From NCBI GenBank assembly GCA_031459715.1, contig JAVKIA010000002.1, positions 596 to 64,595 of the forward strand: a DNA stretch of 64,000 nucleotides, in the 5' to 3' direction. The DNA is from Candidatus Humicultor tengchongensis (GTDB lineage Bacteria > Sysuimicrobiota > Sysuimicrobiia > Sysuimicrobiales > Humicultoraceae). Position numbers and translations under genes: made by a program. Below are positions 4,708-20,277 of this stretch, one piece after another. How positions within the stretch are numbered: position 1 is the stretch's first letter; each line of letters begins with the position of its first letter. The notes beneath the pieces are model-generated. The model was not told the DNA's origin, did not search any database, and saw only the letters and a program-made list of their open reading frames with translations.

Positions 4708-6417
4708 GTGGAGATCATCACACACGACCTGGTCATCCTGGGCGCCGGGCTGGCTGGCCTGCGGGCGGCGCTGGAGGCCGCGGCCGTCTCCCGGGGCGCG
4801 CTGGACATCGCCCTGGTCTCCAAAGTCCAGCTCATGCGCGCCCACTCCGTAGCCGCGGAGGGCGGCACGGCGGCGGTGCTGCGTCCCGAAGAAGGGGACA
4901 GCCTGGAGCTGCATGCCTGGGACACGGTGAAGGGCAGCGACTTCCTGGCCGACCAGGACGCGGTGGACCTCTTCGTGCGCACCATGCCCCAGGAGATCCT
5001 GCGGCTGGAGCACTGGGGACTGCCCTGGTCCCGCCGCCCCGACGGACGCATCGCCCAGCGGCCCTTCGGCGGCCACTCCTTCCCCCGCGCCGTCTACGCC
5101 GCAGACAAGACGGGGTTCTTCGAGATGCAGACCCTCTACGATACCCTGCAGCGCCACACCCAGATCCGGCGCTACGACGAGTGCTTCGTCACCGCCCTGG
5201 TGGTCGAGGAGGGGACCTACCGCGGCCTGGTGGCCATGGACCTGAAGAGCGGCAGGCTGCTGGCGCTGCGCAGCAAAGCGCTGATCATCGCCAGCGGCGG
5301 AGCGGGCCGCCTCTACCACTTCACCACCTACTCCCAGACGGTGACCGGCGACGGCCTGGCCCTGGCCTATCGCGCCGGGATCCCGCTCAAGGACATGGAG
5401 TTCGTCCAGTTCCACCCCACCGGGCTGGTGCCATCGGGCATCCTCATCAGCGAGGCGGCGCGGGGCGAAGGCGGCTACCTCATCAACCGGGAGGGAGAGC
5501 GGTTCCTGGAGCGCTACGCGCCGCAGCGCATGGAGCTCGCCCCGCGGGACATCATCTCCCGCTCCATGATGACGGAGATCGAGGAGGGGCGGGCCTACCC
5601 CCGGCCCGACGGTCTGGACTACCTCCTGCTGGACCTGCGCCACCTGGGCGGGGCCAGGATCAACGAGCGCCTGCCCTTCATCCGCGAGCTGGCCATCAAG
5701 TTCGCCGGCATCGACCCCATTGAGCAACCGATTCCTGTGCGCCCGGTGGCCCACTACTCCATGGGCGGTATCCACACCGACCTGCGGGGGGCCACGCCGC
5801 TGCGGGGCGTATGGGCGGCCGGGGAGGCGGCCTGCGTCTCCGTCCACGGGGCCAACCGCCTGGGGACCAACTCCACGGCGGAGTGCCTGGCCTGGGGAGG
5901 CTTCACCGGCTCGGACGCGGCGCGCTTCGCCGCAGAGGCTGAGCTCCTGCCTCTTCCCGAAGGCGCCGTGGCCGACCAGGAGCGGCGCCTCTCCCAGCTC
6001 TTGCAGGCGGAAGGGACGGAGAGCCCCTACCAGATCCGCGTCGCCCTGCAGGAGACTATGGACCGACACGTGGGCGTCTTCCGCACGGCCGAAGGACTGC
6101 TCCGGGCGCTGCAGCGGATCAAGGAGCTTCAGGAACGAGCCCGCCGGCTGCGGGTGAGCGACCGGGGGTGCATCTACAATACTGACCTGGTGACCTGCCT
6201 GGAGCTGCAGAACCTGCTGGAGGTCGCCGAGGTGGTGGCGGCCGGTGCCCTGGCCCGCACCGAGTCGCGGGGGGCGCAGGCGCGGCGCGACTTCCCTCGG
6301 CGGGACGATGTGCGCTGGCTGGTACACACCACGGCCGTGCGCACTCCTGACGGCCCGCGGTTGTCCACGTGGCCGGTACCGATCACCCGGTGGCAGCCGG
6401 TGGAGCGTACCTACTGA
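4708..6417 (+). CDS. sdhA: succinate dehydrogenase/fumarate reductase flavoprotein subunit
   Basis: GTG start. LVILGAGLAGLRAALEAA FAD-binding Rossmann motif, RSMMTEIEEGR, HYSMGGI. About 569 aa. Confidence 0.9.
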   Translation: MEIITHDLVILGAGLAGLRAALEAAAVSRGALDIALVSKVQLMRAHSVAAEGGTAAVLRPEEGDSLELHAWDTVKGSDFLADQDAVDLFVRTMPQEILRLEHWGLPWSRRPDGRIAQRPFGGHSFPRAVYAADKTGFFEMQTLYDTLQRHTQIRRYDECFVTALVVEEGTYRGLVAMDLKSGRLLALRSKALIIASGGAGRLYHFTTYSQTVTGDGLALAYRAGIPLKDMEFVQFHPTGLVPSGILISEAARGEGGYLINREGERFLERYAPQRMELAPRDIISRSMMTEIEEGRAYPRPDGLDYLLLDLRHLGGARINERLPFIRELAIKFAGIDPIEQPIPVRPVAHYSMGGIHTDLRGATPLRGVWAAGEAACVSVHGANRLGTNSTAECLAWGGFTGSDAARFAAEAELLPLPEGAVADQERRLSQLLQAEGTESPYQIRVALQETMDRHVGVFRTAEGLLRALQRIKELQERARRLRVSDRGCIYNTDLVTCLELQNLLEVAEVVAAGALARTESRGAQARRDFPRRDDVRWLVHTTAVRTPDGPRLSTWPVPITRWQPVERTY

Positions 6418-6434
6418 AGGACGGGGGTGAGACC

Positions 6435-6887
6435 ATGCGCAGCGGTGGAGCGGCGAGGCTGCAGGTTCGGCGGCGGCTGGGGGTGCGGGGGTGGATATAC
6501 GCCGGCCGGTACGGGATCGACCGGTACCTGTACGTGCTGCAACGCGTCAGCGGCCTGGGTCTGGTCCTCTATCTCCTCCTGCACATCTACGAGACCGGTG
6601 CGCGTCTGCGGGGCGAGGCGGCCTGGACGGCCACCATGGCCCTTTTCCGCCATCCGGTCTTCGTCTTCCTGGAGTTCGTCGTCTTCGCCGGCTTCATCTA
6701 CCACGCCCTCAATGGGGTGCGCCTGATGGTCGCCGAACTGGGATGGCTGCTGGGTGCGCCGGCGCGTCCGGTTTACCCGTACGGCAGCTCGCTAAGCCGC
6801 CACCGACCCTGGGTCTATGCGCTGATGCTGCTGGGCGGCGTCCTGCTGGCTTTGGCCGCCACCGACATCTTTGCCTTGCCAGGTTGA
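6435..6887 (+). CDS. sdhC: succinate dehydrogenase cytochrome b subunit
   Basis: Three predicted TM helices with His residues (YLLLHIYETG, IYHALNG). Sits directly after sdhA with GGGGGTGA 5 nt before the ATG. Confidence 0.6.
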   Translation: MRSGGAARLQVRRRLGVRGWIYAGRYGIDRYLYVLQRVSGLGLVLYLLLHIYETGARLRGEAAWTATMALFRHPVFVFLEFVVFAGFIYHALNGVRLMVAELGWLLGAPARPVYPYGSSLSRHRPWVYALMLLGGVLLALAATDIFALPG

Positions 6888-7004
6888 CGTAAGGAAGGAC
6901 CGCCGGGGGACGGAGGGGGTTATTGCCGATGCAACGACATGTGTGGGAATCGACGGACCGTCGTTGCACGCACACGTGGCCGCAGCGGCACGAGGGGTGT
7001 GGTC

Positions 7005-7364
7005 ATGGGTGAGTCTCGCTGGTGGTTGATCTCTCTGGCCGCGGCGGCGCTGATGGTGGTCCTGCTCACCATCCACATGGGGCTGATGCACCTCACCGGC
7101 TTGCTGCGCGCTACCGGCGTGGACCTGGGCGACGTACGCTCCTTCGCCGAGGTGACGGCCCGGGGGCGCAGCGTGACGCAACTGGTCTTCTACCTGCTAC
7201 TCCTGGCCGCCGCCCTCTACCACGGGCTCTACGGGCTGCGCAGCGTCCTGCTGGAAGTGACCCCTCCCAGGGGCCAGGGGCTGATCTCCGGTCTGGTGCT
7301 GCTGGCCGGGTTGGTGGCCTTCGCCTACGGGGCCTACGTCACCGTTAGAACGTTTACCGGATGA
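7005..7364 (+). CDS. sdhD: succinate dehydrogenase hydrophobic membrane anchor subunit
   Basis: Three TM helices, ALYHGLYG motif. Position is between sdhC and sdhB. Start ATG 7005 chosen within the track ORF 6939..7364. Confidence 0.5.
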   Translation: MGESRWWLISLAAAALMVVLLTIHMGLMHLTGLLRATGVDLGDVRSFAEVTARGRSVTQLVFYLLLLAAALYHGLYGLRSVLLEVTPPRGQGLISGLVLLAGLVAFAYGAYVTVRTFTG

Positions 7365-8239
7365 GGGCCGCAGACAGAATGAGGAAGCAAGCCGCACCGG
7401 ACTCGGCCGCAGCGACCGTGACCCTGCGCGTCTTCCGGTTTCACCCGGAGGCCGCTGCCTCCCCGCGGTATCAGGACTACCGGGTACCGGCTGCCCCGGG
7501 CATGACCGTGCTCGAGGCCCTCGTATGCATCAAAGAGCACCTGGACGCCACCCTGGCTTACCGCTCCTCATGCCGTATGGGCATCTGCGGCTCCTGCGGT
7601 ATGTTCGTCAACGGCTTTCCCCGGCTGGCCTGCCAGACGCAGGTGCAGACGCTCGGCTCCCTGGTGCAGGTTGGGCCTCTGCCCAACTACCCGGTGATCC
7701 GCGACGTCGTGCCCGACCTGGAGCCGATGGTAACCCACCACGCCGCCGTGCGTCCCTTCATCATCCGGGATGAACGGGAGCAGGAACCTCCCACCACGGA
7801 GTACCTGCAGACGCCGGGGGAGCTGGAGGCCTACCTGCAATTCGCCTACTGCATCAAGTGCGGCCTCTGCCTGGCCGCCTGCCCCACCGTGGCCACCGAC
7901 CCGGCCTTCACCGGTCCGCAGGCTCTGGCTCAGGCGTACCGGTACAGCGCCGACTCCCGCGATTGGGGCTTCACCGCGCGCCGCGCCGCCGTCGACCACC
8001 CGCATGGCCTCTGGCGTTGCCACCTGGCCGGCGCGTGTACGGAAGCCTGTCCCAAAGGCGTGGACCCGGCTCTGGCCATCCAGCTGTTGAAGCGCCTGGC
8101 ACTGGCCGCTGCGCTGGGCATGGGCCGGCGACGCCCCGCCCCGCTGGCTCCGCCCCCCGTGGCGGTTCAGCGGCGCCCCGACATCCCCGCTCCTCCGCCT
8201 CCAATCGTGGGGGCGAGTCCCGCTGCCGACCCGACCTGA
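7361..8239 (+). CDS. sdhB: succinate dehydrogenase iron-sulfur subunit with Pro-rich C-terminal tail
   Basis: CRMGICGSCGM (2Fe-2S), CIKCGLCLAACP (4Fe-4S), CHLAGACTEACPKG (3Fe-4S). Start overlaps the sdhD stop. Tail PAPLAPPPVAVQRRPDIPAPPPPIV. Confidence 0.9.
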   Translation: MRAADRMRKQAAPDSAAATVTLRVFRFHPEAAASPRYQDYRVPAAPGMTVLEALVCIKEHLDATLAYRSSCRMGICGSCGMFVNGFPRLACQTQVQTLGSLVQVGPLPNYPVIRDVVPDLEPMVTHHAAVRPFIIRDEREQEPPTTEYLQTPGELEAYLQFAYCIKCGLCLAACPTVATDPAFTGPQALAQAYRYSADSRDWGFTARRAAVDHPHGLWRCHLAGACTEACPKGVDPALAIQLLKRLALAAALGMGRRRPAPLAPPPVAVQRRPDIPAPPPPIVGASPAADPT

Positions 8240-8436
8240 CACCAAACATCTGCTCGGGGTTCATACATTCCTCACCCGTTGACCGTCCCGGTCGAAGGTC
8301 GGTACCGTTATGGTACGGGTAGTCTCTAGCGCGGCGGCGCTTCCGCCCATGTTGCCCGCCATCGGTTCGGGAGGATGTGAGAGACGGTTACAGACGGCAG
8401 CGGGAAGAGGATTCTGTCGCATGGGGAGGTGATGAT

Positions 8437-10206
8437 ATGACAGCCCTGATGCTGGTGGTGGCGATCATCGCCGTCTGGATCGGCTACCGGGCCTACTCAG
8501 CCCGGATGGACCGGTACGTGCTCCAGGCGGATCCCAACCGTGCGACGCCGGCCAAGCTCTACCAGGACGGCGTGGACTTCATGCCGGCCTCTGGTAGCGT
8601 GCTCTACGGCTACCAGTTCAAGTCGATTGCCGCGTTGGGGCCCATCGTTGGCCCGATCGTCGCCGCCCAGTGGGGGTGGCTCCCCGCCCTGCTCTGGTTG
8701 ATCCTGGGCGTTCTCTTCATCGGGTGGGTCCAGGACTACACCACATCGATGATGGCCATGCGCTCCGAGGGCATGACCATGGGCGGCCTGAGCTACAAGC
8801 TGGTCTCTCCCCGGGCCCGCAGCATTCTCCTTTCCTTCCTGTATTTCTACCTGCTGCTGATCATGGGCGCGTTCGGCGCCATCGTAGCCGGGCTGCTGGC
8901 CAACCCCAAGGTGCCCATCGGGTTCATCATCGTCACCCTGGCCGGGGTCCTGGCCGGGCACATGACCTACCGGCTGAAGCGCGACCTAGTCAGCACCACC
9001 ATCATTACCGTGATCATCGCCTTCATCGGCGTCTACCTGGGACAGACCGGGGCCCTCAGCCGCATCACGGAATGGTTCAATGGCCTGGTGGGATACACCA
9101 CCACCGTGGCGGACAAAGAGGTCAGGAACGTCCTCTACATGACCCCCTACGGTCCCATGACCTGGCCGGTGTGGATCTGGGGCATCCTGGCGCTGGTCTT
9201 CTGCTACCTGGGCTCAGTCCTGCCCATCTGGCGGTTCGCCCAGCCCGTCAACTACGTCTCCTTCTGGCTGGTGATCGCTGGCATCATCGGGGCCATCATC
9301 GGCATCTTCATCACCCGGCCGGGCTTTGCGGACTTCCCCGCCTTCACCGGCTTCTACGCGGTAGGCGTACTGGCGCCCGGCGTTGCCACCCCGCTGTGGC
9401 CCATCATCTTCGTCACCATCGCCTGCGGGGCCATCTCCGGCTGGCACAGTCTGGTGACCACCTCCGGGACCTCGCGGCAACTGGAGCGGGAGACCGACAC
9501 GCTTCCGGTGACCGCCGGGGCCATGTACACTGAGGCGATCCTGGCCGTCCTGTCCCTGACCTTCGCCGTGGCCGGGTTTGGTGGTTTCGCCGGCTACAAG
9601 GAGGCGCTGGCCCGGGGCGGCGGGGCGGTCTTTGCCGGAGGGATGGCCAAGTTCCTCAACGTGCTGGGTGTGCCCACGGACTTCGGAGCGGCCTTCGGCT
9701 CCATCTTCCTGGTGATTATGGCCCTGACGGTGATGCAGCTGGTCCTGCGCTTCATGCGCATCGCCAGCGCCGAGCTCCTGGGCGACCGGGTGCCCGCCTT
9801 CCGCAACCCGCACTTCGGCTCCGTCATCGCCATCCTGTTCACCCTGCTGATCCTGTGGACCGGGTTCTGGGCGCGCATCTGGATCCTGTTCGGTGGGTCC
9901 AACCAGCTCTTCGCCGGCCTGGCCCTGATGCTGGTCTCCATCTGGCTGGCCAACCAGGGGAAGACGTACCGGTGGGTGGCCTACCCGGCCGTCTTCATGT
10001 ACGTGACCACGGTGGCCGCCCTGCTGGTCACCGGGTGGGTCAGCCTGCAGGCGGCGCTCAAGCCCGGCCTGGCGGCGCCCTTTGTCTTCGGCAACCTGGT
10101 GGCGGCGGCCATCGCCTTCGCGCTGGTGGTCCTGGCGGTGATCCTGGCCGTTGACGGCCTGCGGTCGTTCCAGCGGGCGCGGCTGCAGCCCGCTGCGGCG
10201 ACCTAG
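8437..10206 (+). CDS. cstA: carbon starvation protein A (peptide/pyruvate transporter family)
   Basis: YQFKSIAALGPIVGPIVAAQWGWLPALLWLILGVLFIGWVQDY aligns with the CstA N-terminal region. Multi-TM. ATG at 8437 after GGAGGTGATGAT. Confidence 0.9.
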   Translation: MTALMLVVAIIAVWIGYRAYSARMDRYVLQADPNRATPAKLYQDGVDFMPASGSVLYGYQFKSIAALGPIVGPIVAAQWGWLPALLWLILGVLFIGWVQDYTTSMMAMRSEGMTMGGLSYKLVSPRARSILLSFLYFYLLLIMGAFGAIVAGLLANPKVPIGFIIVTLAGVLAGHMTYRLKRDLVSTTIITVIIAFIGVYLGQTGALSRITEWFNGLVGYTTTVADKEVRNVLYMTPYGPMTWPVWIWGILALVFCYLGSVLPIWRFAQPVNYVSFWLVIAGIIGAIIGIFITRPGFADFPAFTGFYAVGVLAPGVATPLWPIIFVTIACGAISGWHSLVTTSGTSRQLERETDTLPVTAGAMYTEAILAVLSLTFAVAGFGGFAGYKEALARGGGAVFAGGMAKFLNVLGVPTDFGAAFGSIFLVIMALTVMQLVLRFMRIASAELLGDRVPAFRNPHFGSVIAILFTLLILWTGFWARIWILFGGSNQLFAGLALMLVSIWLANQGKTYRWVAYPAVFMYVTTVAALLVTGWVSLQAALKPGLAAPFVFGNLVAAAIAFALVVLAVILAVDGLRSFQRARLQPAAAT

Positions 10207-10218
10207 TATAGTAGCAGT

Positions 10219-10245
10219 GGGGGAGGGGTGGCCCGCCCCTCCCCC
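10219..10245 (+). terminator. perfect 10-bp G/C hairpin (GGGGGAGGGG-TGGCCCG-CCCCTCCCCC) downstream of cstA; putative intrinsic terminator without a U-tract
   Basis: Read directly from the sequence, 13 nt after the cstA stop. High-GC organisms often lack U-tracts. Confidence 0.4.
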
Positions 10246-10260
10246 GCAGGAGGGATGCGG

Positions 10261-10671
10261 ATGCCCACCCTCGAGGTGGTTACACCCACGCTGACGTACT
10301 TCTTCCACTGCGCCCACTGCGAGACGGCCCTGAGCGTGGCGGGGGTGGGGCAGGTGGTGCACGACCAGGAGATCAACGAGTACCCGGAGGACCTCAAGGA
10401 GCAGTACCTGCAGCTTTGCGATTGGATCCGTGCCCTAGCCGCCCGGCATGCGGGGAGGCTGCGGGTGCGCATCGTGGACGCGTACTCCCCCCGGGGTTTG
10501 TGGATGGCCCTGCGCCACCGCGCCCGCACCTTTCCCCTCTTCGTCCTGGACGGCCGGCGCATCGCCGCCGGGGCCGACCTGGCCAGTGTGGCGGCGTTGC
10601 TGCGGGAGCGGTTCGTCCCCCAGGCGGGAGAGCCGCACGCGGGCGCGCCGCCGGAGGTGAAGAATGCCTGA
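10261..10671 (+). CDS. ArsD-like thioredoxin-fold protein (putative metallochaperone) with a His/Cys motif
   Basis: TYFFHCAHCETALSVAGVG aligns with the ArsD N-terminus (MVFDPAMCCSTGVCG). FPLFVLDGRRIAAG aligns with ArsD LPLLLLDGETVMAG. ATG 10261 after AGGAGGG. Similarity judged by eye. Confidence 0.4.
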   Translation: MPTLEVVTPTLTYFFHCAHCETALSVAGVGQVVHDQEINEYPEDLKEQYLQLCDWIRALAARHAGRLRVRIVDAYSPRGLWMALRHRARTFPLFVLDGRRIAAGADLASVAALLRERFVPQAGEPHAGAPPEVKNA

Positions 10672-10939
10672 AGAGAAGCGGTCCTTCCTCTCGGCCTTCC
10701 GCCGCCAGCTTAAAGATTTCGTCTACGGGATGGCGGCGCACGAGATGACCCGCCACGCCCTGAAGACCCGCGGCAGCATGGAGCACCTTTTCATCCTCAT
10801 CACCATGGGCGACCTGCTGGGCGTGCCCATCCTGCCGCCGTACTACTCGCTGCGCCTGCTGCCCTACGTCGTGCCGCAGATCTCCACCTGGAAGCGGAGC
10901 ATGCTGCGGGAGCGAGACCTGACGGATGCTCTCTCCTGA
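10664..10939 (+). CDS. hypothetical protein (91 aa) translationally coupled inside the ArsA-like module
   Basis: ATG overlaps the upstream stop by 8 nt. No domain recognised (HLFILITMGDLLGVPILPPYYSLRLLPYVVPQIS). Confidence 0.4.
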   Translation: MPEEKRSFLSAFRRQLKDFVYGMAAHEMTRHALKTRGSMEHLFILITMGDLLGVPILPPYYSLRLLPYVVPQISTWKRSMLRERDLTDALS

Positions 10940-11948
10940 ACCCGCGGGCCCCGCCCCCCTGGCCCGCTTCTTCCAGGACTTCCCGCAGCGCCGCTACATC
11001 ATGTTTGGGGGCAAGGGCGGTCTGGGGAAGACGACCTTCTCCGCGGCCACCGCCTACTACCTGGCCCGCCGCGGCCATAAGGTCCTGGTCTTTTCCGTCG
11101 ACCCCCAGGCCTCCCTCTCTGACATCTTCCAGCAGGACATCTACGGCCGGGGCCCCGTGGAGATCATCCCCGGCCTCTTTGCCCAGGAGATCGACGCTGA
11201 CCGGCACATCAAGGAGTACCAGGACCAGATCCGCCGCAAGATCCTGGAGATGTACGGCTTTGACCGCGTGCCCGAGGAGATCGAGCACTACATCGCTGCG
11301 GCCTCAGCGGAGCCGGCCATGGAGGAGAGCGCTATCTTCGACCAGGTGGTGGACATCGTCGTGGCCGGTCAGTACGACTACTTCATCTACGACCTGGTCC
11401 CGCTGGGCCACGCCCTTTACTACCTGAGCATGGCCAGCGTCTACGACGAGTGGATCGAACGCATCACCCGGCTGCGCCAGGAGATGCAGCAGTATGCGGA
11501 GATGGCTGCCCGCTTCAAGGGGGAGCAGTTGCAGGAGGACCTGATCCTTCAGGAGTTGCAGGACATCCGGCAGCGCATCACCACCAGCAGCCGCATCCTC
11601 ACCGACCAGGCCAGAACGGCGTTCTTCTTCGTCATCATCCCCGAGGAGATGGTCCTGCTGGACACGCAGAAGGCGGCGCAGCTCTTCTCCCGCTTCCAGG
11701 TCCCCATCAGCGGGTACATCGTCAACCGCGTCCTGCCCGAGGCCCTGGCCAAGGAGCAGATTCCCGACTATCTGCAGCACCGGCTCCAAATGCAGCAGGG
11801 CTACCTGCACAAGATCAGCGACCTCTTTGGCGGGCAGGTGCTGGCCTGGATTCCTGAGTTCGAGCGGGACGTCACCGGGCTGGAGATGATCGCGCGCATG
11901 GCCGAGGCCATGTTTGGGGGAGACGGGGGTGAGCCTGCAGACCGCTAG
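10926..11948 (+). CDS. ArsA/Get3-family P-loop ATPase, cysteine-free
   Basis: Deviant Walker A FGGKGGLGKTT. DLVPLGHALYYL matches the ArsA DTAPTGH-like signature position. 340 aa with no Cys residue at all. Confidence 0.8.
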   Translation: MLSPEPAGPAPLARFFQDFPQRRYIMFGGKGGLGKTTFSAATAYYLARRGHKVLVFSVDPQASLSDIFQQDIYGRGPVEIIPGLFAQEIDADRHIKEYQDQIRRKILEMYGFDRVPEEIEHYIAAASAEPAMEESAIFDQVVDIVVAGQYDYFIYDLVPLGHALYYLSMASVYDEWIERITRLRQEMQQYAEMAARFKGEQLQEDLILQELQDIRQRITTSSRILTDQARTAFFFVIIPEEMVLLDTQKAAQLFSRFQVPISGYIVNRVLPEALAKEQIPDYLQHRLQMQQGYLHKISDLFGGQVLAWIPEFERDVTGLEMIARMAEAMFGGDGGEPADR

Positions 11949-12954
11949 CGCCACCTGGGAGGACCTGGTGGAGGAACCGCTCTCTGCCGTCATCGAGGCC
12001 CGCCCCACCCTGAAGTACCTCTTCTTTGGCGGCAAGGGCGGGGTGGGCAAGACGGTGCTGGCCGGAGCGGCGGCCCTGGGACTGGCCCGGCGGGGGCGGC
12101 GCGTCCTGCTGGTCTCCACCAACCCGGTACACAGCCTCAGCGGGCTGCTGGACCAGGACGTCTTCGGCCGGGTCACCCCGGTGCGGGGAGGGGAGGGGTT
12201 GTGCGCACTGGAGATCGACACCCGGGAGACCATCGAGCGGTCCAAGCGGGAGATCAAGGAGAAGATCGACTGGTTCCTCAAGTACGCCGAGATCCGCACC
12301 CGGGCCGACGCCTTCGTGGAGTCCGCCACCATGAACCCGGCCTTCGAGGAATCGGCCATGTTTGAGAGCATGATTGACGTGATCTTCCGCGGCGAGTACG
12401 AGGTCTACGTCTTTGACACCGCCCCCACGGCCAACGCCCGCAGGCTGCTGGGGATGTCCGCCGTCTACTCCATGTGGGTGCAGAAGATGGTGCAGAGCCG
12501 GGAAGAGGCCCGTTCCCTGCGGCGGCTCCTCTCGTACAGCAAGCAGGAGGAGGCCGACCCGCTGCTGGACTACCTGCTGCACTTCCGCGACCGCATCGCT
12601 GCCGCCAAGCGGCTGCTCACCGACACAGGTCTGACAGCCTTCTTCTTCGTCACCCTGCCCGAGGCACTGCCCATCGCCGTGGTGCGCCGCTTCATCTCCT
12701 GGTTCCAGGACTTCGGTATCCCCATCGGCGGCGTCATCGTCAACGGCGTGATCGACCGGGCCATGGTCCCCGACACCGCTCCCCCCTTCGTCCTCAACCG
12801 CATCGCCGCCCAGGAGACCTACCGGGAGGAGATCAGGCGGACCTTCCCCGGCATGGTCCGCGCCGTCATCCCCCTCTTCGAGACCGAGGTGCGCGGCGTG
12901 CCCATGCTGGAGCGGGTGGCCCGCGTGCTCTTCGCCCCGGGTGCGGGCCCATGA
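11914..12954 (+). CDS. ArsA/Get3-family P-loop ATPase, second paralog
   Basis: FFGGKGGVGKT Walker A. FDTAPTANARRLL is a signature variant lacking the His. Single Cys. Overlaps the first ATPase gene. Confidence 0.8.
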   Translation: MGETGVSLQTASATWEDLVEEPLSAVIEARPTLKYLFFGGKGGVGKTVLAGAAALGLARRGRRVLLVSTNPVHSLSGLLDQDVFGRVTPVRGGEGLCALEIDTRETIERSKREIKEKIDWFLKYAEIRTRADAFVESATMNPAFEESAMFESMIDVIFRGEYEVYVFDTAPTANARRLLGMSAVYSMWVQKMVQSREEARSLRRLLSYSKQEEADPLLDYLLHFRDRIAAAKRLLTDTGLTAFFFVTLPEALPIAVVRRFISWFQDFGIPIGGVIVNGVIDRAMVPDTAPPFVLNRIAAQETYREEIRRTFPGMVRAVIPLFETEVRGVPMLERVARVLFAPGAGP

Positions 12955-13445
12955 CCATGCACCTGCTGGAGGCGTTCAACCCCATCGTCGGCCGCACGGC
13001 GTTCGTTGGACTCTTCCTCCCCGAACCCTGGCGCCTCAGCCGTGCCGTGGTCACGCCGGACGTGCAGACCACGGTGCGGGAGGGAGAGCAGCAGTGGGTG
13101 GCCTCGGGCGAGACCCGGCACGTGCTCGTCCACGGGGTGCGGCGGACGGAGCGCGCCGACCTGATGGTGCGCGTCACCCCGGGTGCTGCCCGCCGCCCCC
13201 TGGCCTCGCGAGTGGGAGCAGAGAGTGGGGCCCTCACCGTGGGCGGCCATCCCGGGGAGTTCCACCTGGGGCGGCGGCGAGACGGATGGTTCACCGCCCG
13301 GATGGTGCCCGTGGTGCGGGTACGCACCTACTGCCCGCGCACCCGGCGAACGGTCCTGCTGGAAGTCACCGGCCAGCTCCCACCCGAGGAGCTGAGGGCC
13401 CTGCTGGACGCATTCCAGCGGATAGCGTGCCACAGCGGGCCCTGA
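12951..13445 (+). CDS. hypothetical protein (164 aa) coupled to the second ArsA-like gene by an ATGA overlap
   Basis: ATG 12951 overlaps TGA 12952-12954. No domain recognised. Confidence 0.5.
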   Translation: MTMHLLEAFNPIVGRTAFVGLFLPEPWRLSRAVVTPDVQTTVREGEQQWVASGETRHVLVHGVRRTERADLMVRVTPGAARRPLASRVGAESGALTVGGHPGEFHLGRRRDGWFTARMVPVVRVRTYCPRTRRTVLLEVTGQLPPEELRALLDAFQRIACHSGP

Positions 13446-13503
13446 GGGCTGAAGCGAGGTTCGGGCGGCGCTCCGGCGGCTCCACCGCTGCACGAGGCTA
13501 GCG

Positions 13504-14886
13504 ATGCACTACCCCTGGTGGCACGTCCCCTTCCTCACGGCGCCGATGCTCATCGCCATTGTCGCGGTCCTCCACGTCCTGGTGGCGCACTACGCCGTGG
13601 GCGGGGGGCTCTTCCTGGCCGCGGAGACCACCTACGCCTACCGCAGCCACAACCTCCGCTACCTGGACTACCTGCGGCAGCACGCCTGGTTCTTCATCCT
13701 GCTGACCGTGGTCTACGGGGCCATCACCGGAGCGGGCATCTGGTGGACCATCGGCCTGGCCTCCCCCCTGGCCACGGAGAGCCTGATCCACATCTTCGTC
13801 TTCGGCTGGGCCATGGAGTACGTCTTCTTCGTCCTGGAGATTGTCTCGGCGTTCATTTTCTACTACTTCTGGGGGCGGCTGCCGACCCGGACGCACCAGA
13901 CAACAGGCTGGATCTACGCCGTCTCGGCCTGGATCAGCCTGGTACTGATCACCGGCATCACCGGCTTCATGCTCAACCCGGGCGCCTGGCCGCAACGGCA
14001 GAGCTTCTGGGTGGGGTTCTTCAACCCGCAGTTCCTCCCTCAAGTCGCCGCCCGCACGGGCGGCGCCTTCCTCCTGGCGGCGCTCTACGTCTACCTGCAC
14101 GCGGCCTTCAAGGTCAAAGACCCTGCACTGCTGCGCCTGATCGAGCAGCGCTCCGCCCGGCCGGCGCTGCTGGGCAGCATCCTGGTCATTTTGGGCGGGG
14201 CGGGCTGGTACCTCTTCCTGCCGGCCTCGGCGCGCGCGGCGCTGGCCGCGGCCAGCGTCCTCAACGTCCTGATGGTGTGGCTCTTCGCCATCACCGTGGC
14301 GGTCTTCGCCATGCTCTACCTGGGCCCGTACCGCCACCCCGGCTGGCTCTCTCCCGGGTTCGCCCTCCTCTTCCTCGGCCTGGGTCTGGCCGCGGTGACC
14401 ACGGGCGAGTACGTCCGCGAGGCGGTGCGCAAGCCGTTCATTATCTACAACCTGGTCCTGGGCAACCAGATCCTTCCCGCCCAGATGCCCCGGCTGCGGG
14501 CGGCGGGCATCCTGCAGGAGGGGGTCTGGCCCCGCGCCTTCGTGGCCACCCACTACCCGCACCTGCTGCGCCAGGGTCGGGTGGACCAGAAAGGACTGCT
14601 GGGGTTGCCCCAGGCTGACCAGGTACTGCTGGGAGAGGTCCTCTTCATGCACGCCTGCAACGACTGCCACACCTCCAGCTCCGGCTTCTCCGCGCTGCGC
14701 AACCTGATGCGCGGGTGGACCCCGGAGATGGTGCGGACTGTCACCGAGCATCCGGAGCGGGTGCACTTCTTCATGCCGCCATGGACCGGCACAAAGGCCG
14801 AATCCCGCCTGCTGGAGCAGTACCTGCGGACGCTGGTGCTGCCCTCCCCTGTGGAACTGCCTGAGCCGATGGGAGGCCGGCGGTGA
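13504..14886 (+). CDS. cytochrome bd (CydA)-like membrane oxidoreductase subunit with C-terminal monoheme cytochrome c domain
   Basis: Multi-TM. AVLHVLVAHYAVGGGLFLAAE (compare the CydA His19 region). WAMEYVFFVLEIVSAFIFYY (compare CydA ALEGLMAFFLESTFVGLFFF with two conserved Glu). C-terminal CNDCH heme c motif. Assignment by eye. Confidence 0.5.
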   Translation: MHYPWWHVPFLTAPMLIAIVAVLHVLVAHYAVGGGLFLAAETTYAYRSHNLRYLDYLRQHAWFFILLTVVYGAITGAGIWWTIGLASPLATESLIHIFVFGWAMEYVFFVLEIVSAFIFYYFWGRLPTRTHQTTGWIYAVSAWISLVLITGITGFMLNPGAWPQRQSFWVGFFNPQFLPQVAARTGGAFLLAALYVYLHAAFKVKDPALLRLIEQRSARPALLGSILVILGGAGWYLFLPASARAALAAASVLNVLMVWLFAITVAVFAMLYLGPYRHPGWLSPGFALLFLGLGLAAVTTGEYVREAVRKPFIIYNLVLGNQILPAQMPRLRAAGILQEGVWPRAFVATHYPHLLRQGRVDQKGLLGLPQADQVLLGEVLFMHACNDCHTSSSGFSALRNLMRGWTPEMVRTVTEHPERVHFFMPPWTGTKAESRLLEQYLRTLVLPSPVELPEPMGGRR

Positions 14887-16004
14887 ATCCCGCCGACCTG
14901 GTCGCCCCGGCCAGCCCCCTGGGGTTCCCCGCCCCCTACTGGTTCCTGGTCCTGCTCAAGGTGGCGGGCTTCACCTTGCACATGGGGCCGATGCACCTGT
15001 GGACCGCCGGGCTGCTGGTGGCCCTGCTGTTGACCCGCCGCCCCGATGCGCACGCCCGGCTGCTGGGGGAGCGGCTGATCGCTCAGCTTCCCGTGGTAAT
15101 CGCCCTGGGGATCAACTTCGGCATCGTCCCTCTGCTGTTTCTCCAGGTGGCCTACTACCGCGTCTTCTATCCGGCCACGGTGCTGGCAGCCTGGTCCTGG
15201 TTCGCTGTCATCCCTCTGCTGGTGCTGGCCTATTATGGCGTCTACCTGTGCGCGGGGGACCTGCGGCAGGCGCGGTCGGGCGGCCTGCGCCGTCTGGTCG
15301 GCTGGGTGGCTGCGGCGGCCTTCCTGGCCATCGGCCTGGCGTTCGTCAACGGGATGACGCTCATGACGCGGCTGGAGGCCTGGCCCGACCTGTGGCGGGC
15401 CACCAGCCGGGCCGGCGCACCTCTGGGAACCGCCCTCAACCTCTCCGACCCCAGGCTGCTGCCGCGCGGGCTGATGATGCTGGCCCTGGCGCTTGTTACC
15501 ACGGCCGCCTACGCAGTGGTGGACGCGGGGCTCTTCGCCCGCGGTCTCCCGGCGGCCTACCGCCGCTGGGTGGCCGGCTTCGCCCTGCGCCTGGCTACCA
15601 TTGGGGTGGTAGGGTTCGCCATTTTCGGATCCTGGTACGCCTTCGCCACCTGGTCGGCGGAGGCGCGAGGGGTGATGCTGGGCCGGCTGGCCCCGCTCAC
15701 CGCGGCCACCGCCGCCGCGCCGGCCCTTCCCTGGCTGCTCATCGCCAGGCAGCGCCGCGGCCCCACCCCGGGCGCGGCTCTGGCCACCGGGCTGGCACAG
15801 CTTGGTGTCCTCGCCCTGAACGCCACCAGCCGGCAGGTGGTGCAGAACCTGGAGCTGGCCCGCTTCCTGGATGTGGCCGCCGAGCCGGTGCGGACCCAGT
15901 GGAGCCCGCTGGTCGTCTTCCTGCTCCTCCTGGCCGGCGGCATGGGGGTGATCCTGTGGATGGTGGGCAGGGCCAGGAGCATCCTGCGCCCGGTACCTCA
16001 CTGA
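14883..16004 (+). CDS. polytopic membrane protein, probable partner subunit (CydB/CydA'-like) of the bd-like oxidoreductase
   Basis: GTG 14883 overlaps TGA 14884-14886. About 9 hydrophobic helices. No other motif. Confidence 0.5.
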   Translation: MNPADLVAPASPLGFPAPYWFLVLLKVAGFTLHMGPMHLWTAGLLVALLLTRRPDAHARLLGERLIAQLPVVIALGINFGIVPLLFLQVAYYRVFYPATVLAAWSWFAVIPLLVLAYYGVYLCAGDLRQARSGGLRRLVGWVAAAAFLAIGLAFVNGMTLMTRLEAWPDLWRATSRAGAPLGTALNLSDPRLLPRGLMMLALALVTTAAYAVVDAGLFARGLPAAYRRWVAGFALRLATIGVVGFAIFGSWYAFATWSAEARGVMLGRLAPLTAATAAAPALPWLLIARQRRGPTPGAALATGLAQLGVLALNATSRQVVQNLELARFLDVAAEPVRTQWSPLVVFLLLLAGGMGVILWMVGRARSILRPVPH

Positions 16005-16375
16005 TCGTCTACCGACCGATCGGGTATGTGGAGAACGCCTTTGACCAGCCCGTGGCCCCGGAAGTCCTCCTGGCCGCCACATCCCGCATCGTCCTCGACC
16101 CGGCGCTGGTCGAAGGGCTGGCGGGTATCGAGCCAGGGCAGCGGCTCATGGTCGTCTTCCACTTCCACCGCGCGGGCGGATACAAGCTGCAGCAGCACCC
16201 GCGGGGGGACCCCGGCCGGCCGCGCCAAGGTGTCTTCACCCTGCGCAGCCCCCACCGTCCCAACCCCATCGGCGTGACGGTGGTTGAGGTGCTGGCTGTC
16301 CAGGGCCACATCCTCACCGTGCGCGGGCTGGACGCCATCAACGGCACCCCCGTACTGGACCTGAAGGCCGAGTAG
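16001..16375 (+). CDS. TrmO/TsaA (YaeB)-family SAM-dependent tRNA methyltransferase N-terminal domain protein; start codon noncanonical
   Basis: PIGYVENAFDQP...FTLRSPHRPNPIGVTVVEVL...GLDAINGTPVLDLK matches the TrmO fold signature. No in-frame ATG/GTG/TTG before the conserved PIGYV; CTG at 16001 overlaps the upstream TGA (CTGA). Confidence 0.55.
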   Translation: MIVYRPIGYVENAFDQPVAPEVLLAATSRIVLDPALVEGLAGIEPGQRLMVVFHFHRAGGYKLQQHPRGDPGRPRQGVFTLRSPHRPNPIGVTVVEVLAVQGHILTVRGLDAINGTPVLDLKAE

Positions 16376-16440
16376 GGAGCAAGGCCGGCGCCGGGGAATC
16401 TTTCCCGCACCTACTCCCTGGCGCGGGACGGAGGGCACCT

Positions 16441-16923
16441 GTGGAGCTGAGCAGCGTCAAGATCCAGAAGCCTGACGAGGTGAACCTGATTCTGGGGCAG
16501 GCCCACTTCATCAAGACAGTCGAGGACCTGCACGAGGCGCTGGTGGGTGCCGTGCCCGGGTTGAAGTTCGGACTGGCCTTCTGCGAGTCCTCAGGACCGG
16601 CACTGGTGCGCTGGAGCGGGACCGACCCGGAGCTGGTGGAGCTGGCCAGGCAGAACGCCTTCGCCCTGGGCGCAGGCCACTGCTTCCTCATCTTCCTGCG
16701 GGACGCCTTCCCCATCAACGTGCTGAACGCGGTCAAGCAGATCCCGGAGGTCTGCGGCATCTACTGCGCCACCGCCAACCCGGTGGAAGTCCTCCTGGCG
16801 GAGACGGAGCAGGGACGGGGCATCCTGGGGGTGATCGACGGGCTCCGCTCCCGGGGAATCGAAGGCGAATCGGAGATCGCCGACCGCAAGGCGCTGCTGC
16901 GGCGGTTCGGCTACAAGTTCTAG
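16441..16923 (+). CDS. conserved protein, possibly adenosine-specific kinase family (PF04008/COG1839-like)
   Basis: GTG start after GACGGAGGG. Motifs GLAFCESSGPALVRWSG and IYCATANPVEVLL recalled as typical of that family. Low certainty. Confidence 0.4.
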   Translation: MELSSVKIQKPDEVNLILGQAHFIKTVEDLHEALVGAVPGLKFGLAFCESSGPALVRWSGTDPELVELARQNAFALGAGHCFLIFLRDAFPINVLNAVKQIPEVCGIYCATANPVEVLLAETEQGRGILGVIDGLRSRGIEGESEIADRKALLRRFGYKF

Positions 16924-17187
16924 AAGGTGCTCTGCACAGCGACTTTACGGGGAAGAAAGCGCAAGGCGATGGGAATCAGAATGGTGGCCATGATCAGCCC
17001 GACCACCCAGTAGAACTGCTGGCGCGTCTCACTCCGCAGCCCTGTGATCTCCCCGCGCACGGCGGCGAATTCCCCCCCCAACGGCGGCGAATTCCGCGAC
17101 CATCTTGCGGCGCAGGTCGCGCAAGCCAGCTTCCAGAGCGGATAGGCGCCTTTTGATCTGCTCATAAGCCCCCGCTGGCCACGCCAT
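16920..17187 (-). other. candidate small tail-anchored membrane protein gene (coiled-coil then C-terminal TM) interrupted by a C8/G8 homopolymer frameshift and carrying a 16-bp tandem duplication
   Basis: Minus-strand ORFs 17029..17436 and 16920..17165 join through the poly-C run at 17073-17080. Predicted product MAWPAGAYEQIKRRLSALEAGLRDLRRKMVAEFAAV-GGEFAAVRGEITGLRSETRQQFYWVVGLIMATILIPIALRFL... Confidence 0.25.
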
Positions 17188-17575
17188 ACGAATCTCCAGA
17201 GACTCTGCGGTCACGCCCTCGCCCCTATACAGCCTGGCAGCGCCTGCATGCGGTTTATCGGCCCGAGCGGGATGGGTTTGCGGGCAGCAGGGGTGGCCCC
17301 GAGAACTCCAGTCGCGGCCGAAACCGGCCCTTCCTGGGGCCGCACTGAGGCCGGCAGCCCCTAACTCCGCAGCGGTACCCTCTTTTACTCCTGGTCCCTT
17401 GAGTGGATGCCGACCTACTCTTCGCACCCGATACAAATCAGCCGCCTATTCGATACCTGGCGACGGCTTCCAACCCGGATAATGCCTCTGGGGAGACTGC
17501 CGCGTGGCGCGCCCGGGGGCATGCGCCCGCGGCAGCCCGTACCAGCAGGCGAGCGCGCCGGCGTATGGTGCCGCG

Positions 17576-18346
17576 ATGAAGCTGGCGGTCTCCGGCAAGG
17601 GCGGCGTCGGCAAGACGACGGTGTCCGCCCTCCTGGCCTCTGAGCTGGCGGCGCGGGGGTTCCGCGTTACGGCCATCGATGCCGATCCCAACCCCACCCT
17701 GGCCGCCCTGCTGGGGTTCCCCCTCCCGCCTCCTGTCTCGCTGCTGGACCTGCGGGCCGAAATCGAGGAGCGCGTGGGCCCCCCGGGGGGCCTGATCCGC
17801 CTCAACCCCCGCGTGGACGACCTGGTGGAGCGCGTCGCTGCCACCTTTGGTGGAGTGCAGCTCATCGTGGCCGGAGCCATTAGCCGTGGCGGGGCCGGGT
17901 GCGCCTGCCCGCAGAACGTCCTGCTGCGCCGTCTGCTGGACCACGTGGTCCTGGAGCGCAACGAGGCAGTGGTCGTCGACCTGGAGGCCGGCCTGGAGCA
18001 CCTGGGCAGGCGCAGCGCCCAGGCCGCCGACGCCCTGCTGGTGGTAGTGGACGCCAGCCGGGCCAGCCTGGAGACGGCGGCCCGCATCAGACGCCTGGCC
18101 GGGGAGATCGGCATCCCCCGCACCTTCGCCGTGGCCAACAAGGTCCGCGGGCCGGAGGAGGAGAGCTGGATTGCCTCCGGCCTGCAGGACAGCGAGCTCG
18201 TCGCCACCATCCCCTACAGCGAGGCCCTGGCCCGGGCGGAGCGGGCGGGGGAGCGGGCCGCCGCAGCCGACGCTGCTGTGGCCGCGGCGGCAGCACGGCT
18301 GGTGGACGCCCTGCAGACGCGATGCGAACGGAGGGTGAACGTATGA
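17576..18346 (+). CDS. cooC: CO dehydrogenase nickel-insertion accessory ATPase (MinD/ParA family)
   Basis: MKLAVSGKGGVGKTT deviant Walker A. Immediately upstream of cooS with an ATGA overlap. Confidence 0.85.
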   Translation: MKLAVSGKGGVGKTTVSALLASELAARGFRVTAIDADPNPTLAALLGFPLPPPVSLLDLRAEIEERVGPPGGLIRLNPRVDDLVERVAATFGGVQLIVAGAISRGGAGCACPQNVLLRRLLDHVVLERNEAVVVDLEAGLEHLGRRSAQAADALLVVVDASRASLETAARIRRLAGEIGIPRTFAVANKVRGPEEESWIASGLQDSELVATIPYSEALARAERAGERAAAADAAVAAAAARLVDALQTRCERRVNV

Positions 18347-20277
18347 CCTACGAAGGGCAGCGGTCCGTGCGCACCGACCCGGCCAGCCTCGAGATCCGTG
18401 AACGTGCCAGAGCCCAACGCATTCCCACCATCTGGGACCGCTATGCCGCCCTGGGCTCCCAGTGCAGGGTGGGTGAGCTGGGGATCTGCTGCACCATCTG
18501 CCACCTGGGGCCGTGCAACCTGGGCCTGCCCGGGAGCAAGCGGCCGCAGGTGGGGGTATGCGGCGCCGGCATCGACACCGTGGCCGCGCGCCGCCTGGCG
18601 CGGGACATGGCCGCGGGGTCGGCCGCCCACTCCGATCACGGCCGGGGCGTGGCCCACCTGCTGCTGCTGGCAGCCCGGGGTGAAGCCCCCGGCTACGGGG
18701 TCAGGGACGAGCGCAAGCTGCGCGCCCTGGCGACGGAGCTGGGTGTGGCCCAGGACGGCCGCCCGGTCAACGAGGTGGCACAGGAGGTGGCCCTAGCCTG
18801 CCTGGCTCAGTTCGGCCGGCAGGAGGGGCCGGTGGCCTTCGCCCGCCGCGCCCCAGCCCGGCAGCAGGAGATCTGGCAGCGCCTGGGCATCATCCCCCGG
18901 GGAATCGACCGGGAGATCGTAGAGGTGATGCATCGCACCAACATGGGGGTGGACAACGACTACCGCAGCATCGTCCTGGCGGGGATGCGCAGCGCCCTGG
19001 CCGACGGCTGGGGAGGTTCGATGATCGCCACTGACCTGCAGGACGTGCTCTTCGGCACCCCCCGGCCACTGCGCGCCCAGATGAACCTGGGCGTGCTGCG
19101 GGCCGATCAGGTGAACATCCTGGTCCACGGGCACGAGCCGCAACTGGCCGAGGCTGTAGCCGATGCCGCCGGGGACCCGGAGCTGCTGGCCCAGGCCAGG
19201 GCGCTGGGAGCCAGCGGGATAAACGTAGCGGGCATCTGCTGCACCGCTAATGAGATCCTTATGCGCCGCGGGATCCCCCTGGCCGGCAACTTTCTGCAGC
19301 AGGAGCTGGCCCTGGTAACCGGCGCCGTGGAGGCCTTCCTGGTGGACGTGCAGTGCATCATGCCCGGGCTGGTGGATGTGGCCTCCTGCTTCCACACCGA
19401 GCTCATCGCCACCTCACGCCAGGCGCGCTTCCCCGGCATGGTACACATCGAGCTCTCCGAGGACCGTGCGCCGGAGGTGGCCCGCCAGATCGTGGCCCGC
19501 GCCGTGGCCAACTACGCCCGCCGTGATCCCGGCCGCGTGGTCATCCCCGACCACAAGATGGACGTGGTGGCCGGCTTCACCACCGAGTCCATCACCCACA
19601 TCCTGGGTGGACGCTACCGCGGGGGCTGGCGTCCCTTGAATGACGGCATCATCGCCGGCCGCATCCGCGGCGTGGTGGGCGTGGTGGGGTGCGACTCCCC
19701 CAAGCAGGTGCAGGACCAGGGGCACCTGGACCTGGTCTACGAGCTGCTGGCGCGCGACGTCCTGGTGGTGCAGACCGGCTGCTCGGCCATTGCCTGCGGT
19801 AAAGCGGGGCTGCTGCAGCCTGAGGCGGCCTTCCGTCATGCCGGGAGGGGGCTGCGGGAGATCTGCGAGGCCACCGGCATCCCCCCGGTCCTGCACACCG
19901 GGTCATGCGTGGATAACAGCCGCATCCTCACCGCCTGCATGGAGATGGTGAAGGAGGGCGGCATCGGCCGCTCCTTCGACGAGCTCCCGGTGGCCGCGGC
20001 CGCGCCGGGGTGGTGGTCGGAGAAGGCCATCGCCATCGGGTTCTACGCCGTAGCTTCGGGGATCTTCACCGTCCTGGGCTCCCCCTTCAACATCCTGGGC
20101 AGCGAGGCCCTCACCCACTTCGTCACCGAGGAGCTGGAGGGGCTGGTGGGCGGGAAATTCGCCTTCGAGCCCGACCCGGCAAAGGCGGCGCAGCTCATCG
20201 TGGCCCACCTGGACCGCAAGCGCCAGGCCCTGAAGCTGCGGCCGATGATGTACGAGGCTGTTCCCGTGGGGGCCTAG
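18343..20277 (+). CDS. cooS: carbon monoxide dehydrogenase catalytic subunit (CODH component of CODH/ACS)
   Basis: GICCTICHLGPCNLG (B/D-cluster Cys motifs), GVCGAG, HSDHGR. About 644 aa. Confidence 0.9.
   Translation: MTYEGQRSVRTDPASLEIRERARAQRIPTIWDRYAALGSQCRVGELGICCTICHLGPCNLGLPGSKRPQVGVCGAGIDTVAARRLARDMAAGSAAHSDHGRGVAHLLLLAARGEAPGYGVRDERKLRALATELGVAQDGRPVNEVAQEVALACLAQFGRQEGPVAFARRAPARQQEIWQRLGIIPRGIDREIVEVMHRTNMGVDNDYRSIVLAGMRSALADGWGGSMIATDLQDVLFGTPRPLRAQMNLGVLRADQVNILVHGHEPQLAEAVADAAGDPELLAQARALGASGINVAGICCTANEILMRRGIPLAGNFLQQELALVTGAVEAFLVDVQCIMPGLVDVASCFHTELIATSRQARFPGMVHIELSEDRAPEVARQIVARAVANYARRDPGRVVIPDHKMDVVAGFTTESITHILGGRYRGGWRPLNDGIIAGRIRGVVGVVGCDSPKQVQDQGHLDLVYELLARDVLVVQTGCSAIACGKAGLLQPEAAFRHAGRGLREICEATGIPPVLHTGSCVDNSRILTACMEMVKEGGIGRSFDELPVAAAAPGWWSEKAIAIGFYAVASGIFTVLGSPFNILGSEALTHFVTEELEGLVGGKFAFEPDPAKAAQLIVAHLDRKRQALKLRPMMYEAVPVGA

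Follow-up and report, generated by a model that had tools for sequence, protein, structure and literature searches.

A CstA-associated operon with paired Get3/ArsA-like ATPases and a DUF7990 protein in Candidatus Humicultor tengchongensis

We analysed a stretch of 64,000 nucleotides (nt) from Candidatus Humicultor tengchongensis (contig JAVKIA010000002.1, positions 596 to 64,595 of the forward strand; hereafter the window), whose G+C content is ~70%. An original prediction, made from the sequence alone, had singled out positions 10,219 to 13,445 as a group of five coupled genes for an ArsD-like protein, two cysteine-free or nearly cysteine-free ATPases of the ArsA family, and two small proteins of no known family. 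The locus is a six-gene operon consisting of cstA, a thioredoxin-like gene, cstX (encoding a DUF7990 protein), the genes for ATPase-1 and ATPase-2, and a Mog1-like gene. We class it with the CstA-associated Get3/ArsA-like ATPase systems, a kind first described in 2010, and not as a new kind of system. Its genes are the following, with product lengths in amino acids (aa):

8377-10206, + strand: CstA-family transporter, 609 aa (Pfam PF02554, E 6.7e-114)
10261-10671, + strand: thioredoxin-like HCxHC protein, 136 aa (weak family-profile matches to thioredoxins)
10664-10939, + strand: CstX-like small protein, DUF7990, 91 aa (precomputed PF25952)
10926-11948, + strand: Get3/ArsA-family ATPase-1, 340 aa, 0 Cys (TIGR00345, 234.5 bits)
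11914-12954, + strand: Get3/ArsA-family ATPase-2, 346 aa, 1 Cys (TIGR00345, 201.5 bits)
12951-13445, + strand: accessory protein, 164 aa, predicted Mog1/PsbP-like alpha/beta sandwich (structure model)

All five of the originally described + strand open reading frames (ORFs) exist (10228-10671, 10664-10939, 10926-11948, 11914-12954, and 12951-13445), and both the ORF coordinates and the DNA confirm the overlaps of 8 nt, 14 nt, and ATGA. The overlap of 35 nt given for the two ATPase genes holds if ATPase-2 starts at TTG 11914, and shrinks to 20 nt if it starts at GTG 11929, which is preceded by a purine-rich stretch and would yield a 341-aa protein; the genes overlap with either start. The first of the five ORFs is open from GTG 10228 (147 aa), but its gene most likely starts at ATG 10261 (136 aa), because a GGAGG lies 7 nt upstream of that codon and the public gene model also has 136 aa. 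The five-gene unit was drawn too short, as the conserved CstA gene ends only 54 nt upstream of ATG 10261 (21 nt upstream of GTG 10228). A scan of 7800-14200 for promoters and terminators returned no promoter-like site and a single terminator-like site, which lies inside a gene and falls below the shuffle count.

The window CstA is 29% identical to Escherichia coli CstA over nearly the full length (E 2e-54); we found no solved structure of the CstA family in the PDB. To examine the neighbourhood we scanned one genome per species, which placed DUF7990 in at least 600 genomes, and analysed the best 80 loci. These are the closest relatives of the window CstX (at least 74% identical) and span at least five phyla: Armatimonadota, Methylomirabilota, Chloroflexota, Desulfobacterota, and Zixibacteria. 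An ATPase-1-type gene directly follows DUF7990 in 79 of the 80 loci, and an ATPase-2-type gene comes next in 65 of the 66 that have room for it. A same-strand CstA gene is found upstream in 46 of the 57 genome loci with enough flanking sequence, and also in all 8 metagenome loci from the look-ups of two close CstX homologues, where the gene order is CstA, a ~130-aa protein, DUF7990 (one or two copies), two ArsA-family ATPases, and a ~163-aa or TPR protein. The conserved partner of the ATPase pair is the upstream CstA transporter. The 164-aa family occurs in only 12/80 genome loci, and the thioredoxin-like family in 39/80. Median identity to orthologues from other species falls from 80% for DUF7990, 71% for ATPase-1, and 67% for ATPase-2 to 52% for CstA, 37% for the thioredoxin-like protein, and 29% for the 164-aa protein, a gradient that marks CstX and the two ATPases as the constrained core.

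Both ATPases exceed the 135-bit cutoff of the TIGR00345 model (TRC40/GET3/ArsA), and Pfam names their family ArsA_ATPase (PF02374). They fall below the cutoff of the ArsA equivalog TIGR04291 (100 bits for ATPase-1 and 98.6 for ATPase-2, cutoff 650), as they do for the BagA and BagB models NF053622 and NF053621 (47.7 and 38.1 bits for ATPase-1, 52 and 30.2 for ATPase-2; cutoffs 400 and 521). The best PDB match of ATPase-1 is Methanocaldococcus jannaschii Get3 (MjGet3; 3ug6, E 1.2e-60), to which ATPase-2 also matches (E 1.3e-50), in both cases with an end-to-end alignment; matches to archaeal Get3 (3UG6, 3ZQ6) span E 1e-60 to 1e-45 for the two proteins. Matches to E. coli ArsA are weaker (2.5e-31 for ATPase-1, the other value being 2e-34), and those to Mycobacterium tuberculosis Rv3679/Rv3680 lie at E 2e-6 to 3e-8. 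The original prediction had taken the pair for Get3/ArsA-type ATPases of the SIMIBI class that work on something other than arsenite, and in this it was right.

The two ATPases are 33% identical to each other, and each carries a deviant Walker A motif: GGKGGLGKTT in ATPase-1, invariant in 73/76 orthologues, and GGKGGVGKTV in ATPase-2. Switch I reads SVDPQAS in ATPase-1 (76/76 orthologues) and STNPVHS in ATPase-2 (65/65), and switch II reads DLVPLGHA (76/76) and DTAPTANA (64/65). Both proteins do depart from the DTAPTGH signature (DLVPLGH and DTAPTAN), but the motifs are not ‘degenerate’ in the sense of decay, since each is an invariant signature of its paralogue. The Asp of switch I corresponds to D57 of yeast Get3, a residue that places the water molecule for attack (PMC10248533). 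This Asp is kept in ATPase-1 and replaced by Asn in ATPase-2. On these motifs ATPase-1 is predicted to be catalytically competent, and ATPase-2 to bind ATP with impaired hydrolysis. The Asp/Asn split suggests an asymmetric heterodimer; at its simplest, the two proteins would pair obligately, one nucleotide site hydrolysing ATP and the other being regulatory. The Cys counts of 0 and 1 are as first reported, the metalloid-binding Cys triad is absent, and 58/76 ATPase-1 and 52/65 ATPase-2 orthologues have no Cys at all. The CxxC zinc motif that Get3 has at its dimer interface was not found, the aligned positions reading IPDYL in ATPase-1 and APPFV in ATPase-2. The region corresponding to the helical client-binding subdomain of Get3 comprises 67 and 65 residues, as compared to 72 in MjGet3, with conserved hydrophobic positions and a similar hydrophobic fraction (0.43 and 0.46 vs 0.42), yet it has only 3 Met as compared to 9.

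The 91-aa protein, previously called an unknown, belongs to Pfam DUF7990 through a precomputed assignment to PF25952, a family with 6294 clusters at 90% identity and 400 representatives at 50% identity. Its sequence is 100% identical to the public protein QN152_01075, recorded under Armatimonadota bacterium. It is probably the ‘CstX’ of Castillo & Saier 2010, and we use that name here. Its core, FGDxLGxPxLPPYYSLRLLPY followed by WKRxxLRERDxTD, is Gly/Pro-rich and of borderline hydrophobicity (Kyte-Doolittle 19-residue maximum 1.59, at residues 42-60); it is invariant on all sides and positively charged on both flanks. Its borderline hydrophobicity and its conservation on all sides suggest that the core is buried in a protein complex rather than exposed to lipid. 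The window CstX has no Cys. Against the cory-CC-star model NF041419 (cutoff 80 bits) it scores 32.4 bits, and its C-terminus (...DALS) lacks the Cys-Cys; matches below the cutoff were nonetheless obtained for 45 of 46 diverse DUF7990 members, and we therefore regard DUF7990 and cory-CC-star as related families. A Pfam scan of the 46 members at E <= 10, with a library that does not contain PF25952, returned noise only. No homology of DUF7990 to YbdD/YjiX (PF04328) was detected (hhalign probability 0.5%).

A divergent subgroup of DUF7990 keeps other company. A metagenome scan produced 80 loci of this subgroup (L091-L170), and no adjacent CstA or ATPase pair was present in the 33 examined loci of at least 6 kb. 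The gene most often found beside it is FeoB, which lies immediately upstream in the same orientation in 24/75 loci (e.g. L119:4876-7294, L115:4992-7270, and L125:5069-7291), with FeoA two genes upstream in 13 loci. DUF7990 is often followed by a second DUF7990 copy, by an ABC ATPase with an ABC-3 permease, or by a MoCF_biosynth-domain protein; single loci feature NifU, a cysteine desulfurase with TusA, or a CDF transporter fused to a FeMo-cofactor-binding domain. With its FeoB-linked subgroup DUF7990 is therefore not exclusive to CstA, and the 2010 statement that CstX occurs only together with CstA is no longer true of the DUF7990 family.

The remaining small proteins are less conserved. The first was originally described as an ArsD-like protein of thioredoxin fold. 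Its likeness to ArsD does not stand, as it has no Pfam or NCBIfam match (Pfam E <= 0.01, including ArsD PF06953) and its family profile retrieves no ArsD from the PDB at E <= 10. A thioredoxin fold is plausible from the same profile, which weakly matches thioredoxins (E 0.04-0.09) with the cis-Pro region and CPHC aligned. The reported HCAHC motif is present, and type I members of the family mostly have HCxHC[EQ]; no variation across phyla was seen at C28, H30, or C31, or at the Pro of YP(T/L)F. In many loci a second thioredoxin-like paralogue of ~121 aa that has lost the CxxC comes right after the first (e.g. L015:7116-7484, L019:3376-3744, and L041:6489-6854).

The 164-aa protein is predicted to form a Mog1/PsbP-like alpha/beta sandwich. 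The model, made by AlphaFold2 (AF2) on 8 sequences, matches members of this fold structurally; single-sequence AF2 gave a pLDDT of 45 and was unusable. Among members of the fold family are the Eag/SciW chaperones of the type VI secretion system, which bind the transmembrane helices of effectors, and Mog1, a regulator of the nucleotide state of the GTPase Ran. His100, Cys128, and the C-terminal Cys160-His161 are invariant in the 164-aa family. The end is literally Cys-His-stop in 11/19 members, an echo of the Cys-Cys-COOH of the unrelated YbdD and YjiX and, by name, also of cory-CC-star.

Gene content around the core varies in several further ways. A second DUF7990 upstream and the 164-aa gene are mutually exclusive among the 46 genome loci with both flanks (0/28 vs 9/18; Fisher p 4e-5, phylogeny not corrected for), while an extra DUF7990 copy lies further downstream in 9 of the 12 loci carrying the 164-aa gene. 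At least 34/80 genome loci and one metagenome cluster also encode a protein of 215-230 aa with an N-terminal transmembrane helix, from a gene that adjoins the two ATPase genes or lies upstream of cstA (e.g. L005:8818-9510, L015:10904-11761, and L017:14869-15543, all on the - strand). It may be the ‘CstY’ of Castillo & Saier, which they reported in five archaea as an optional protein of ~210 aa with one transmembrane segment (PMC2963123); the 64-kb window contains no match to it. Loci at which the trio of CstX and the two ATPases has no CstA within 8 kb include L010, L011, L013, L017, and L054 from Methylomirabilota, and also L021 and L039. Upstream of the trio at L017 are genes for a UDG-family protein and a Lysine_decarbox/SLOG protein, and a second DUF7990 copy lies with a CstY-like gene a few kb downstream on the opposite strand.

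On either side of the operon the window carries these features:

4708-8239: succinate dehydrogenase/fumarate reductase set (flavoprotein, two small membrane subunits, Fe-S subunit), directly upstream of cstA with a gap of 137 nt
13504-16004: bd-like gene and coupled membrane gene, with products of 460 and 373 aa
16004-20277: four-gene run encoding TrmO_N-domain, adenosine-specific-kinase-family (PF04008), CooC-like, and Prismane/CO-dehydrogenase-family proteins
17504-18346: CooC-like MinD/ParA-type ATPase of that run
within ORF 17899-20277: Prismane/CO-dehydrogenase-family protein of that run

The N-terminal part of the 460-aa protein resembles cytochrome bd subunit I (PF01654, E 4e-15), and its C-terminal part carries a c-type haem motif, CNDCH, with a weak Cytochrome_CBB3 match. 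The gene for this protein overlaps by 4 nt, and is translationally coupled to, that of the 373-aa membrane protein, which has no family match. The run at 16004-20277 looks like a carbon monoxide dehydrogenase (CODH) module with its own maturation ATPase. Every gene in 4708-20277 was assigned and no ars gene is among them, in agreement with the original prediction. Two cargoes had been proposed there for the ATPases, namely the bd-like/haem c oxidoreductase and the nickel machinery of CODH/acetyl-CoA synthase. The bd-like and 373-aa membrane genes recur only at L009, which is from the same species (99% identity), and are absent from the other 87 related loci; the CODH genes are likewise not conserved neighbours and have their own CooC-like ATPase. 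Both proposed cargoes are therefore unsupported.

We tentatively propose, as a possibility that falls a little short of probable, that an asymmetric clamp of the Get3 type, made of ATPase-1 and ATPase-2, acts on CstX as the adaptor of CstA, and that its ATP cycle gates or energises transport. The two single-domain ATPases would form a heterodimer in which ATPase-1 is hydrolytic and ATPase-2 binds ATP and hydrolyses it poorly. The clamp would take as its partner the conserved hydrophobic, Gly/Pro-rich core of CstX, and CstX would in turn belong to the CstA carrier as a small subunit or act as its adaptor, in the way that YbdD does for E. coli CstA. ATP binding and hydrolysis by the clamp would be relayed via CstX to CstA, there to gate or energise transport. 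The substrate would be a small carbon compound (those CstA proteins that have been characterised carry pyruvate or peptides), and the coupling would be analogous to that by which ArsA turns the secondary carrier ArsB into an ATP-coupled system. The thioredoxin-like CxHC and Mog1-like Cys-His proteins would be lineage-variable accessories; possible roles for them are those of redox or metal sensors, of a regulator of the nucleotide state, or of a co-chaperone to the clamp.

We favour this model because of the tight coupling of the genes, the conserved order of DUF7990, ATPase-1, and ATPase-2, and the presence of CstA upstream; because of the conservation gradient, the invariant paralogue-specific motifs, and the end-to-end alignment of both ATPases with Get3; and because of the co-evolution described by Castillo & Saier, the need of E. 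coli CstA for YbdD, and the btsT-yjiX-yjiA pattern. The FeoB-adjacent DUF7990 proteins fit a small protein associated with transporters linked to nucleoside triphosphatases (NTPases) and are therefore counted on the same side; the recurrence of DUF7990 beside NTPase-coupled transporters mildly favours an adaptor role. Several points weigh against the model. Characterised CstA and BtsT proteins are proton-coupled importers that need no ATPase. Six Methylomirabilota loci and a few others have the trio of CstX and the ATPases but no CstA gene within 8 kb, so that the trio is separable from CstA. That the CstX core is so extremely conserved would suit the client of a chaperone as well. The identification of DUF7990 with the CstX of 2010 was made through size, position, and context, not through sequence, and the motif invariance applies to the clade of closest CstX relatives from which the 80 loci were drawn. 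A broader version, which we consider rather unlikely, would make DUF7990/CstX a general small adaptor that couples P-loop NTPases to membrane transporters: it would link a free Get3-like pair to CstA and, in FeoB, act on the fused G-domain. On this view the CstA system would represent either a new class of carrier, controlled by ATP and driven by an asymmetric Get3-type clamp, or the first natural, genetically defined client system of prokaryotic Get3 homologues.

The Get3-like insertion factor raised in the original prediction is still a live option, in the form of a dedicated targeting or assembly system, although we judge it somewhat unlikely. Here the heterodimer would shield the hydrophobic core of CstX in a composite groove and deliver CstX to the membrane or to CstA. 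The ATPases would be biogenesis factors and CstX a tail-anchored-like or hairpin protein, with the 164-aa protein as a pre-targeting co-chaperone or nucleotide-state regulator, roles for which its fold family, with the Eag/SciW chaperones and Mog1, offers precedents. Archaeal Get3 proteins are indeed the closest solved relatives of the ATPases, which appear to keep the helical client-binding subdomain with conserved hydrophobic positions, and the hydrophobic segment of CstX, a borderline case of a transmembrane helix, stops ~20 residues short of the C-terminus. Moreover, no other genes of the operon are as conserved and as tightly linked as those of CstX and the ATPases, and in Methylomirabilota this trio is found at loci that lack CstA. 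Yet a core rich in Gly, Pro, Tyr, and Arg and invariant all round is unlike a lipid-facing anchor, both its flanks are positively charged, the groove region is low in Met, no Get1/Get2-like receptor gene is found in the operon, and a two-ATPase chaperone dedicated to a single 91-aa client would be costly.

Trafficking of metal, sulfur, or redox equivalents is an alternative that we hold to be quite improbable; it generalises the metal or cofactor chaperone of the original prediction, with neither the bd oxidase nor CODH as its target. The cargo would be thiol-reactive or a metal, handled by the CxHC and Cys-His proteins, with the ATPases as a delivery clamp in the style of ArsD and ArsA. The conserved HCxHC of most type I thioredoxin-like members would be explained, as would the invariant His100, Cys128, and C-terminal Cys-His of the 164-aa family; the CstA partners YbdD and YjiX end in Cys-Cys-COOH, and their Campylobacter relatives in Cys-Sec. 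The protein encoded beside btsT-yjiX, YjiA, is a P-loop GTPase, which we take to belong to the metal-binding COG0523 class, and stand-alone DUF7990 genes adjoin FeoAB, ABC-3 permeases, NifU, cysteine desulfurase/TusA, and a CDF transporter. However, the ATPases and CstX are essentially free of Cys, neither the bd-like nor the CODH genes are conserved neighbours, and CODH is served by its CooC-like ATPase. The thioredoxin-like and 164-aa genes are missing from many loci, and there are paralogues without CxxC; the thiol or metal elements are therefore not part of the core. As for an ordinary arsDA operon for arsenite or antimonite detoxification, its likelihood is negligible. Only the Pfam name ArsA_ATPase and the sub-threshold matches to the ArsA equivalog speak for it. 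The ATPases are single-domain proteins that score far below that model's cutoff, the metalloid-binding Cys and any ArsD signal are absent, and ars genes are missing both from the 15.5 kb annotated here and from the cstA-arsA operons in the literature. Arsenic detoxification is thus ruled out by domain architecture, Cys content, model scores, and context, as the original prediction had also concluded.

The roles of bacterial and archaeal Get3/ArsA homologues outside arsenic resistance are unsettled, and the operon offers a compact, genetically defined test case: one transporter, a 91-aa partner with ~80% identity between phyla, and two ATPases of which one is predicted to be active and the other inactive. 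At least 600 species genomes contain this operon type. Should the ATPases act on CstA via CstX, this would show that a Get3-type clamp can control a carbon-uptake carrier, and would also explain why small partner proteins and SIMIBI NTPases are so frequent beside CstA-family transporters. For the window itself the annotation should be corrected, in that these are neither arsenic genes nor maturation factors for the neighbouring oxidase or CODH.

Among known systems, the BagA/BagB pair of M. tuberculosis (Rv3679/Rv3680, PDB 6BS3) is likewise a heterodimer of Get3/ArsA-like ATPases encoded by adjacent genes without arsenic genes, but it is only distantly related to the window ATPases, as seen from the PDB E values and the NCBIfam scores far below cutoff; we know of no link between BagAB and CstA or DUF7990. 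In the ArsA-ArsB-ArsD system, too, a secondary carrier works with an ATPase from this superfamily, and the protein encoded upstream has a thioredoxin fold, as may be the case here. That system differs in that ArsA is a fused two-domain protein (~580 aa) with the Cys triad and activation by metalloid, and ArsD has Cys motifs of its own. Archaeal Get3 (3UG6/3UG7, 3ZQ6) gives the best sequence matches and shares the deviant Walker A; its helical subdomain is similar in length and hydrophobicity to the corresponding region here. Archaeal Get3 assembles as a homodimer or tetramer, has a CxxC zinc pivot, and carries the canonical motifs DPAHS and DTAPTGH, whereas the window pair consists of two diverged paralogues with no CxxC, altered switch motifs, and Asn in one subunit.

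The E. coli CstA-YbdD and BtsT-YjiX-YjiA systems are alike in that a CstA-family carrier is followed by a small protein; in btsT-yjiX-yjiA a CstA paralogue, a small protein, and a SIMIBI-class P-loop NTPase are encoded in a row. YbdD and YjiX differ from DUF7990 in their family (PF04328), in their Cys-Cys-COOH ends (see also Haft 2022), and in the lack of detectable homology, and YjiA is a G3E GTPase, unlike the Get3/ArsA ATPases here. Pyruvate uptake by E. coli CstA requires YbdD (PMC5847655).

The closest precedent is the survey of Castillo & Saier 2010, who described 26 bacterial and archaeal operons in which cstA is accompanied by CstX, a protein of ~90 aa with one transmembrane segment, and by single-domain ArsA homologues of ~330 aa, sometimes as adjacent pairs (PMC2963123). 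These operons had no ars genes or arsR, and the ArsA homologues had lost the three Cys, had a weaker DTAP motif, and had the D of their SxD motif replaced only by N (PMC2963123). The authors found that CstA and CstX had evolved together with the ArsA homologues, and suggested that CstX links the ATPase to CstA, which the ATPase would energise (PMC2963123). The opinion that the function is not predictable from sequence was therefore too pessimistic, the association, the Cys loss, the weak DTAP, and the Asp/Asn exchange having been in print since 2010. For the years after 2010 we found no paper on cstA-cstX-arsA operons, on CstX, on DUF7990/PF25952, or on CstA with Get3/ArsA, and our search likewise returned no relevant cory-CC-star paper and no experiments on operon members. 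The window agrees with the 2010 operons in having a CstA gene adjacent to the ArsA homologues on the same strand, a ~90-aa protein with one hydrophobic segment between the two (a position conserved at 79/80 loci), and adjacent single-domain ATPases without the three Cys, with a weaker DTAP, with Asp or Asn in switch I, and with no arsR, arsB, or acr3. It departs from them in having no CstY counterpart. The strict catalytic asymmetry of ATPase-1 and ATPase-2, the thioredoxin-like CxHC protein, and the Mog1-like Cys-His protein are not in the 2010 account and are described here.

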